Shown here one piece after another: positions 25,035 to 26,244 of a stretch of DNA of 27,108 nt. The translations under genes and the position numbers were made by a program. The DNA comes from Candidatus Thorarchaeota archaeon (GTDB lineage Archaea; Asgardarchaeota; Thorarchaeia; Thorarchaeales; Thorarchaeaceae). Location of the stretch: the NCBI GenBank assembly GCA_019057475.1, contig DXJO01000012.1, positions 1-27,108 on the forward strand. The letters run 5' to 3'. Numbering within the stretch: position 1 is the first letter of the stretch; every line of letters starts with the position of its first letter. The notes beneath the pieces are model-generated. The model was not told the DNA's origin and did no database searches. It saw nothing but the letters and a program-made list of their open reading frames with translations.

Positions 25035-25460
25035 CTGGAACGTCGCGCAATATCATTTGTCACATCAGTCGGCCTGATCATTCAGGCACTGTGGTGGCTC
25101 GAATTCACGCTGCTCACCTTGCAGAGTGCTATACAGAGCACCTTGTCCACTTCCAGATTGCTCAGTGGATTGACACTCTTCGTGTGCCTTCCCTGCACGG
25201 TGATTCCCTTCTGGATGGCGTGGGCAGTTTGGACTCGTCGTCAATACAATTTCCTTCTTGGATTGTGGACGACATGGGCACTGTGCATTGGCATAACGGT
25301 CAGTCTGTCGTACTTAATCAATAGCCTTTACGGTCACGTGATACTCCCTGAGAGTCTGTTCAAATCCATGTTAGCTTCGTTGATGTTGGTGCTGCCAGCA
25401 TATATCTCAGCGATTTACATAGCCACTACGCCATCCGTACCCGAAGACCAGTGGTGGTGA
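25035..25460 (+). CDS. Hypothetical ~4-TM membrane protein, paralog M1 (CTG at the start position; possibly silenced)
   Basis: Open frame (L)ERRAISFVTSVGLIIQALW...PEDQWW, colinear with 25813-26244. The ORF track truncates it to TTG 25119. Confidence 0.7.
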   Translation: MERRAISFVTSVGLIIQALWWLEFTLLTLQSAIQSTLSTSRLLSGLTLFVCLPCTVIPFWMAWAVWTRRQYNFLLGLWTTWALCIGITVSLSYLINSLYGHVILPESLFKSMLASLMLVLPAYISAIYIATTPSVPEDQWW

Positions 25461-25632
25461 ACAAGAAAGTCGGAAATAGTGTTTCTTGCACGCTTGGTCA
25501 GGTATACAAGGACGCAATGGCGTGTGCGAAAGCGCAGTACATGTCAACATAATCAAGTCTTTGACAGAGGGCGAAACCACCGCAGGCGACGAGATCATCT
25601 GTTCCAAAGGCAAGTACTTCTACGAGATGTGA
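25461..25632 (+). pseudogene. Decayed duplicate of the aminopeptidase 3' end (A')
   Basis: Translates as KKVGNSVSCTLGQVYKD / (1-nt deletion) NGVCESAVHVNIIKSLTEGETTAGDEIICSKGKYFYEM*, against EKIGDTIHCALGRAYKDCNGVNESAVHVDMIKSMLKGEITAGDEIIYSKGKYFYEMK* in the intact gene. Confidence 0.9.
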
Positions 25633-25812
25633 AAGGACAAAGACGCTAAGTGGCACTGGACAATAACAGAATCGCAGTTGACGGTGGACAAGAAACACTG
25701 GTCATTCAAGATACGACCGAAGGCCCTTGAGCAGGGCAGGTCTCGATACATGGGGCACTGATTCTCGAAAGCATCTTATGTTTCGGTGAGTGTAAGAGTC
25801 TGGCGGCTATCG

Positions 25813-26244
25813 ATGGAACGTCGGGCAATATCATTTGTCACATCAGTCGGCCTGGTCATTCAGGCACTGTGGTACCTCGGAATTATGCTGCTCGGCTTGC
25901 CGAGTCTCATACAGAGCACCTCGTCCGCGTCCCGCTTCGTCCTTGGGTTGGTACTCGGCGTGTGCCTTCCCTGCACAGCGATTCCCCTCTGGCTGGCGTG
26001 GGCAGTCTGGACTCGTCGTCAATCCAATTTCCTCCTTGGATTATGGACGGCAATCGCACTATGCTTTGGCATAATTGGCAGTCTGTTGTATTTCATCGCT
26101 ATCTATTATGTTCACGTGTCATCCCCTAGTATGGCTTTGGCGTTCATATCCATTGTAACTGCGTTGATGTTGGTGCTGCCAGCATGTATCTCAACGATTT
26201 ACATCTTCACTACGCCACCCGTACCCGAAGACCAGTGGTGGTGA
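25813..26244 (+). CDS. Hypothetical ~4-TM membrane protein, paralog M2
   Basis: MERRAISFV...PEDQWW, 143 aa, four hydrophobic segments; about 68% aa identity to M1 by hand alignment. Confidence 0.8.
   Translation: MERRAISFVTSVGLVIQALWYLGIMLLGLPSLIQSTSSASRFVLGLVLGVCLPCTAIPLWLAWAVWTRRQSNFLLGLWTAIALCFGIIGSLLYFIAIYYVHVSSPSMALAFISIVTALMLVLPACISTIYIFTTPPVPEDQWW

Follow-up and report, generated by a model that had tools for sequence, protein, structure and literature searches.

Introduction

Small membrane proteins that confer protection against a membrane-acting toxin are exemplified by the immunity proteins of pore-forming colicins (Cai/Cei type), which consist of three to four helices with cytoplasmic termini and whose specificity resides in the transmembrane helices that meet the toxin inside the membrane. 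A different kind of organization is found in the orphan toxin-tip/immunity modules of CdiA/Rhs systems, in which each small downstream gene is accompanied by a repeated piece of the upstream gene's 3' end. Most Asgard archaea have not been cultured, and next to nothing is known of how they fight competitors or viruses at the level of the membrane. Arrays of orphan immunity genes, or acquired interbacterial defence islands, have been described in bacteria (PMC12247911), and integrons have been described in archaea (PMC9668308).

Here we report the analysis of a window of 27,108 nucleotides, corresponding to the chromosomal contig DXJO01000012.1 of a Thorarchaeota (Asgard) genome, which contains two related genes, M1 and M2, coding for four-helix membrane proteins. 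The types to which these genes belong diverged faster at amino-acid-changing than at silent sites. The explanation that we favour, and to which we give somewhat better than an even chance, is that the locus harbours a mobile cassette of positively selected orphan membrane protein types, whose role would most likely be type-specific protection (immunity or exclusion).

Results

Organization of the M locus

The features of the locus, all on the forward strand, are as follows.

23873..24940 (+): M29 (AmpS-type) aminopeptidase gene (Pfam PF02073, E 7e-79)
24920..24928 (+): core TACTTCTAC (9 bp, codons YFY), copy 1, left boundary of cassette 1
24947..25034 (+): leader 1, conserved and non-coding, 88 nt, 9/88 differences from leader 2
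25035..25460 (+): M1, type B-b by codon alignment and family typing, 141 codons, codon 1 = CTG
25486..25632 (+): relic B of the aminopeptidase 3' end (tblastn against ampS residues 317-354, 79%)
25633-25724 (+): long spacer, also present in L035, L030, L032, L029 and L027
25725-25812 (+): leader 2, 88 nt, aligned to leader 1
25813..26244 (+): M2, type A-a by codon alignment and family typing, 143 codons, ATG start
26270..26416 (+): relic C of the aminopeptidase 3' end (tblastn, 62% to ampS residues 317-353)
26534..26995 (+): two-helix membrane protein with a C-terminal zinc ribbon (weak zinc-ribbon Pfam matches)

Alignment of the aminopeptidase 3' end with the relics showed that the cassettes are framed by a repeat whose first copy is the final ~150 nt of this gene. 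Behind each M gene comes a relic of the last 40-50 aminopeptidase codons. The repeat unit as delimited in the earlier note was therefore too small, because it also holds these relics (25486-25632 and 26270-26416). Relic B terminates in core copy 2 (25615-25623) plus GAGATGTGA, while relic C, the most diverged copy, carries the degenerate core TTCTTCTTC at 26399-26407. It should be noted that the aminopeptidase of the window ends with YFYEMK and the stop codon (24929-24940), two bases (TG) being missing from the GAGATGTGA found after the core in all other cassettes.

Leader 1 includes a TATA-like TTATATTT at 24997-25004 and is the presumed promoter of the cassette. The leader is conserved 5' of every M gene and occurs nowhere else in the genus; the idea of a general cassette platform, with a leader serving other genes, was rejected because the leader stands only before M genes.

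The gene for the zinc-ribbon membrane protein is syntenic in all the canonical loci and marks the right border of the variable locus. It occurs in two deep allele classes, with a dS of ~1.1 between the window and G001/G002, in contrast with 0.31 for PEPCK in the same genomes, and its omega is 0.2-0.3. Judged by the zinc-ribbon dS of 1.1, the cassette would look far younger than the DNA around it, but the PEPCK background of 0.31-0.45 gives this idea less weight.

According to Pfam analysis of all large ORFs of the 27-kb contig, the remaining genes are housekeeping or surface genes, and no recombinase, integron integrase included, is encoded there. A scan of positions 24880-26540 revealed no attC-like hairpin between the cassettes, the single weak inverted-repeat pair being located inside M2, and Rfam gave no family match at the cassette locus. 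As for a diversity-generating retroelement, no reverse transcriptase domain is present among the contig ORFs, and the genome has no M copy other than those of the two cassettes.

The M family and its types

The M family is an orphan family of four-helix membrane proteins confined, among the 61 relatives searched, to one Thorarchaeota genus. The source genome has two copies only, M1 and M2. A word-indexed search retrieved 22 metagenome proteins of the family, and a profile search of 1.84 billion representatives added no further relatives, its one extra match (P0025) being a low-complexity repeat. The set used for the evolutionary analysis comprised 20 distinct coding sequences from genome and metagenome loci.

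No match to the M proteins was obtained in Pfam, PHROGs or PADLOC, nor with a family profile in the PDB sequences; in the ESM Atlas, all M scores were below 0.9; and a Foldseek search with the weak AF2 model found generic four-helix bundles only, with E above 1. Neither toxin nor virus nor recombinase genes were linked to the M genes in the analyses with Pfam on contig ORFs, PHROGs and PADLOC, and no cassettes were found on the viral contigs of IMG/VR.

Sequence variation is concentrated in two blocks, and the combination of the two is linked, so that five types can be recognized (A-a, B-b, C-c, D-d and E-e), with two chimeras (A-b and C-a). M2 is of type A and M1 of type B. Loci contain arrays of one to three cassettes, e.g. 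D, B and C in L034, and two copies of one full type were present in no array. The types remain discrete and are conserved across species. The earlier note had described M1 and M2 as tandem paralogs; they are rather two types of a mobile, recombining cassette common to several species.

Two other genomes of the genus, G003 and G004, both incomplete, have no detectable M copy. Only a remnant of an M gene (residues 70-143) is left in G005, and decayed cassettes were noticed in L039 (2498-2980) and L006 (1498-1740); the decayed copy of L039 appears frameshifted, as P0024, the protein called there, is in another frame over its first ~90 residues.

Divergence and selection

The codon alignment of M1 (25035-25460) with M2 (25813-26244) contains 85 identical, 11 synonymous and 45 amino-acid-changing codons, 18 of the latter differing by two or three nucleotides. 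The only indel spans two codons, and there are no internal stops. These values are close to those counted by hand in the earlier note (about 44 changed codons, about 14 of them by multiple nucleotides, and 11 synonymous), which was also right about the 9 differences between the 88-nt leaders (24947-25034 vs 25725-25812) and about the single 2-codon indel and the lack of stops and frameshifts. The segments that it named as conserved are nearly invariant in the 20 distinct family members. Nor is the pattern a local oddity of M1 and M2, since the same two variable blocks set apart the five types across the genus.

For the M1-M2 pair, omega was 1.49 (NG86), 1.60 (LWL85) and 1.95 (YN00), and the pairwise maximum likelihood estimate over the whole gene was 2.11-2.17 (likelihood ratio test against omega = 1, p=0.014). 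The other between-type pairs gave 1.6-2.6 with one exception, and omega above 1 was also found between intact genes of different types. The omega of the neighbouring aminopeptidase gene, with the L005 copy left aside, is 0.03-0.14, and that of PEPCK is 0.1.

Branches were compared by means of a custom GY94-F3x4 pruning likelihood, which reproduces the one-ratio fit of IQ-TREE (lnL -3297.7, omega 0.93). The chimeras were excluded, and the seven between-type branches (the stems) were contrasted with the within-type branches. The two-ratio model, whose branch classes were defined after the types had been seen and which belongs to a kind of test that hidden recombination and multi-nucleotide mutations can inflate, gave an omega of 2.43 between types and of 0.64 within types and was better than the one-ratio model (p=3.6e-9), the stem value being above 1 at p=6e-6 and the within-type value below 1 at p=1e-4. 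Constraint within types is therefore weak. A dN/dS well below 1 across homologues would speak against the diversification put forward in the earlier note; the between-type value is significantly above 1, and even the within-type value is only mildly reduced. The orphan M family thus bears a statistically supported signature of diversifying selection.

Two further explanations were examined and rejected. An old mosaic with saturated variable blocks does not account for the M1-M2 pair, as dS is 0.19 in the variable and 0.13 in the conserved blocks, and an overlapping gene constraining silent sites is not indicated, as stops in the alternative frames match the expectation from codon shuffling.

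The start codon of M1

The first codon of M1 is CTG, in contrast to the ATG of M2 and other relatives. An in-frame TGA is located four codons 5' of M1, and the next canonical start, TTG at 25119, would delete helix 1 if used. M1 may therefore be a recently silenced copy. One might go further and regard M1 as a neutrally decaying pseudogene, whose decay yields the excess of amino-acid changes, a view that could appeal to the CTG, to the stop just upstream and to the relaxed omega (~0.85-1.3 vs other B copies) of the type-B copy in L034 that also starts with CTG. The excess, however, is not of M1's own making: only 1 of the 44 M1/M2 differences is private to M1, whereas 25 are type-defining on both sides and are common to other type-B and type-A genes that bear ATG. 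Moreover, M1 has neither frameshifts nor stops, its omega relative to the ATG-bearing relative in L031 is 0.32-0.54, and omega above 1 recurs between intact genes of different types. Decay of one copy, which the earlier note had named as a possible source of the excess, is thus largely ruled out and we consider it very improbable.

The CTG of the L034 copy is at 2166-2168; three other type-B copies, including the M1 relative in L031, have ATG. M1 and the L034 copy come from different samples and are not sisters on the tree, so that loss of the start must have been recurrent or transferred. Either course could point to silent reserve copies.

Predicted membrane topology and the variable face

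Both AF2 and hydrophobicity predict four helices in the M protein, although confidence in the model is low. Run on the family alignment, AF2 placed the helices at residues 2-33, 39-68, 73-100 and 107-133 (pLDDT 61, pTM 0.40, both low), joined by loops of 4-6 residues; the external loops, of 5-6 residues, leave little exposed surface. Following the positive-inside rule, we assigned the N-terminus, the tail and the TRRQ loop to the cytoplasm, and the MERR and TRRQ motifs accordingly suggest an N-in/C-in orientation. The depth coordinate derived from the low-confidence AF2 model is approximate.

On the predicted halves, M1 and M2 differ at 32 of 67 outer positions and at 12 of 73 inner positions (Fisher p=1e-4). 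Over the whole family, entropy increases towards the outside (rho 0.52, a value reached by 2 of 141 circular shifts). The differences are therefore not spread evenly over the two faces, as they would be if the earlier note were mistaken about the variable face, and its proposal of diversification on one face of the membrane holds with regard to where the differences accumulate. It does not hold with regard to omega, which on the stems is alike in the two halves (2.45 outer, 1.97 inner), while silent divergence at amino-acid-identical codons is 0.27 in the outer and 0.14 in the inner half, the outer value being the higher in 175 of 190 pairs. Because omega is similar and outer silent divergence is doubled, confinement of selection to one face is unsupported; the outer half is faster overall or, equivalently, the conserved half is homogenized or constrained at the DNA level.

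Mobility and recombination of the cassettes

Every cassette begins right after the core TACTTCTAC with GAGATGTGA and ends in a relic that finishes with the same core. The core at the start of a cassette encodes YFY and lies at the end either of the aminopeptidase gene or of a relic. These boundaries are identical across three contexts, foreign ones included. In four independent assemblies (L029, L030, L032 and L035), there is no aminopeptidase gene upstream of the cassette, and a TSP3-repeat gene contains one exact cassette period flanked by two copies of the 9-bp core; in G001, the TSP3 gene is uninterrupted and has a single TACTTCTAC at that point, i.e. an empty site. The duplicated core around the insertion, together with the empty site, demonstrates that the cassette is mobile, and the comparison of the TSP3 gene with G001 provides an instance of discrete cassette insertion at a core site. 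The types found at this ectopic site are, by assembly, A-a, A-b, B-b, and C-c plus C-a. In L031, the upstream DNA is unrelated as far as GGCAAGTACTTCTAC. Terminal cassettes that have no relic share one common deletion junction, at which the first ~18 nt of the relic are kept.

At silent sites, types A and B differ by 0.08-0.22, less than the species background given by PEPCK (0.31-0.45), which implies that whole cassettes or portions of cassettes have passed between genomes or between copies. The relics, compared with the aminopeptidase gene and with the row for relic C left aside, have an omega of 0.15-0.4 and still resemble functional aminopeptidase ends; such constraint would fit repeated crossovers with the live aminopeptidase gene. 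As to the mechanism, homologous recombination of the RadA type with rare microhomology insertion could be responsible, or else an unlinked site-specific enzyme, and we infer that a circular cassette intermediate may be involved.

An IS4-like DDE transposase is located ~0.6 kb upstream of the ectopic TSP3 insertion (L035 1313-2416; L030 267-1235), its identity being based on a weak Pfam match and on a Y-2-R-3-E-6-K motif judged by eye. In G001 and G006, a second aminopeptidase end or full gene is present ~3.4 kb upstream (L022 1-3868; G006:C371 1517-6382 = L040), and the aminopeptidase adjoining the M array is partial (residues ~196/237-354). In G001, this partial aminopeptidase is fused to a signal-peptidase-like N-terminus, and an internal TAG occurs in the G006 aminopeptidase copy. 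It would seem that the 3' end of the aminopeptidase gene attracts insertions in general.

Discussion

A model for the M locus

In the explanation that we favour, the M gene would travel as a cassette of ~0.7-0.8 kb, composed in this order of the core TACTTCTAC at the aminopeptidase end, a spacer, the promoter-like leader, the M gene and a relic with the same core. Recombination at the repeated ends and at the conserved intragenic blocks would allow cassettes to be gained, lost, swapped and shuffled, giving rise to arrays with one to three different types. New types would be born in bursts of amino-acid replacement under positive selection and would then come under mild purifying selection. The two short external loops and the outer-leaflet halves of the helices would receive most of the replacements, with no change in the C-terminal PEDQWW tail or on the cytoplasmic face. 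The variable outer part might recognize a variable membrane-acting agent, such as the toxin of a competitor or a component of virus entry, the constant inner part would perform a common job, and carrying several types would give a genome wider protection.

A protective role of the M proteins is what we infer from the constant face and tail, the variable outer half, the selected types, their accumulation in arrays and their exchange between genomes, a combination that a protective specificity protein would fit best. The observation made on M1 and M2 in the earlier note is real and statistically supported. Its interpretation as an arms-race or recognition protein finds partial support in these sequence comparisons, in that omega exceeds 1 between types and variation is enriched on the outside; the functions that it listed (immunity, receptor or kin recognition) would be suggested by this pattern at one remove.

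Much of the evidence may also be read in terms of nearly neutral drift of lipid-facing residues combined with homogenization by gene conversion or exchange. Homogenization would reset silent and conserved sites, so that dS would be underestimated, the omega above 1 would be an artefact and the types would have no adaptive meaning. The chimeras do prove recombination, the within-type omega is high (0.64), the one-ratio omega (0.93) is near 1, the silent divergence of M between the window and G001 (0.15) is about half the genome background (0.31), and that of the conserved inner half is half that of the outer. On the other hand, drift cannot raise omega significantly above 1, as is observed on the stems (2.43, p=6e-6) and for M1-M2 (2.17, p=0.014). 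In addition, the M1-M2 dS of 0.12-0.16 matches the divergence of the leader (9/88), so that the dS of M is not locally depressed, and a homogenization sparing only amino-acid differences would itself need selection keeping the types distinct. The discreteness of the types and their conservation across species are likewise not what drift predicts. For these reasons, we consider such drift unlikely.

Diversifying selection on a variable outer half with a conserved cytoplasmic face would equally be expected if the M protein were a target or a label, i.e. a virus receptor, a self or kin recognition protein, or a partner-specific assembly subunit whose outer half co-evolves with the partner. What weighs against this is the way the genes are gathered: arrays bring together different types that each have a leader of their own, and cassettes spread between genomes, which is additive if the proteins protect, but adds susceptibility if they are receptors. 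A receptor or kin label is less likely precisely because extra copies would add susceptibility. Furthermore, two members of the genus, G003 and G004, lack a detectable M copy, incomplete as these genomes are, and no co-varying partner was identified, the zinc-ribbon neighbour being under ordinary constraint. We therefore regard a target or label as quite improbable.

Implications

The protective reading, if right, would make the M family a starting point in the search for the corresponding Thorarchaeota toxins or viruses. The M locus presents a predicted split of the protein into a cytoplasmic half that is constant and an outer half that varies, and its occupied and empty sites are direct sequence evidence that a very small cassette can be mobile with no recombinase close by. 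Should the cassette mechanism alone stand, the locus is still a compact example of how 3'-end homology can build and shuffle archaeal gene arrays. A more far-reaching possibility, which we put forward tentatively and hold to be rather doubtful, is that of a new kind of archaeal cassette, a promoter-bearing single-gene unit with no linked recombinase, whose attachment site would be a housekeeping gene's 3' end with a 9-bp core and which would spread positively selected membrane specificity proteins among Asgard archaea. If true, the closest prokaryotic relatives of eukaryotes would possess a system of surface immunity or exclusion that has not been seen before.

Comparison with known systems

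Like an integron cassette, the M cassette is a single-gene unit bounded by a repeated recombination site, and M arrays resemble those of integrons in their variable content, in the insertion at a secondary site with a short core and in the exchange between genomes. Unlike integrons, the M locus has no IntI-type recombinase on its contig and no attC-like imperfect hairpin between its cassettes, the repeated element is a directly copied coding 3' end rather than an attC, each cassette has its own promoter-like leader, and one gene family only is carried. An integron was rejected, as neither an attC hairpin between the cassettes nor an integrase on the contig was found.

The repeated 3' end at the M locus provides homology for the exchange of modules, as in the CdiA/Rhs systems. 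In those systems, however, the upstream gene codes for a toxin, whereas here it is a cytoplasmic M29 aminopeptidase, and the repeated ends are conserved and not polymorphic. The variation of the M proteins, concentrated in the predicted outer-leaflet helix halves with very small loops between them, would fit a specificity located in the transmembrane helices, as in the immunity proteins of the Cai/Cei type; the likeness is one of architecture only, and the M proteins have no sequence or fold match to them. The neighbours of the M genes are the aminopeptidase and the zinc-ribbon membrane protein, and no cognate toxin is adjacent. We do not claim membership of the M proteins in any of the families compared, their defining features, where looked for, being absent.

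The orphan immunity gene arrays of bacteria differ from the M locus in that the host of the latter is archaeal and in that the M genes have no homology to an immunity family, no recombinase and no known delivery system or toxin. Nevertheless, the M genes are, like the genes of those arrays, small, rapidly evolving, horizontally exchanged and without an adjacent toxin, and in both cases a larger number of types plausibly means broader protection.
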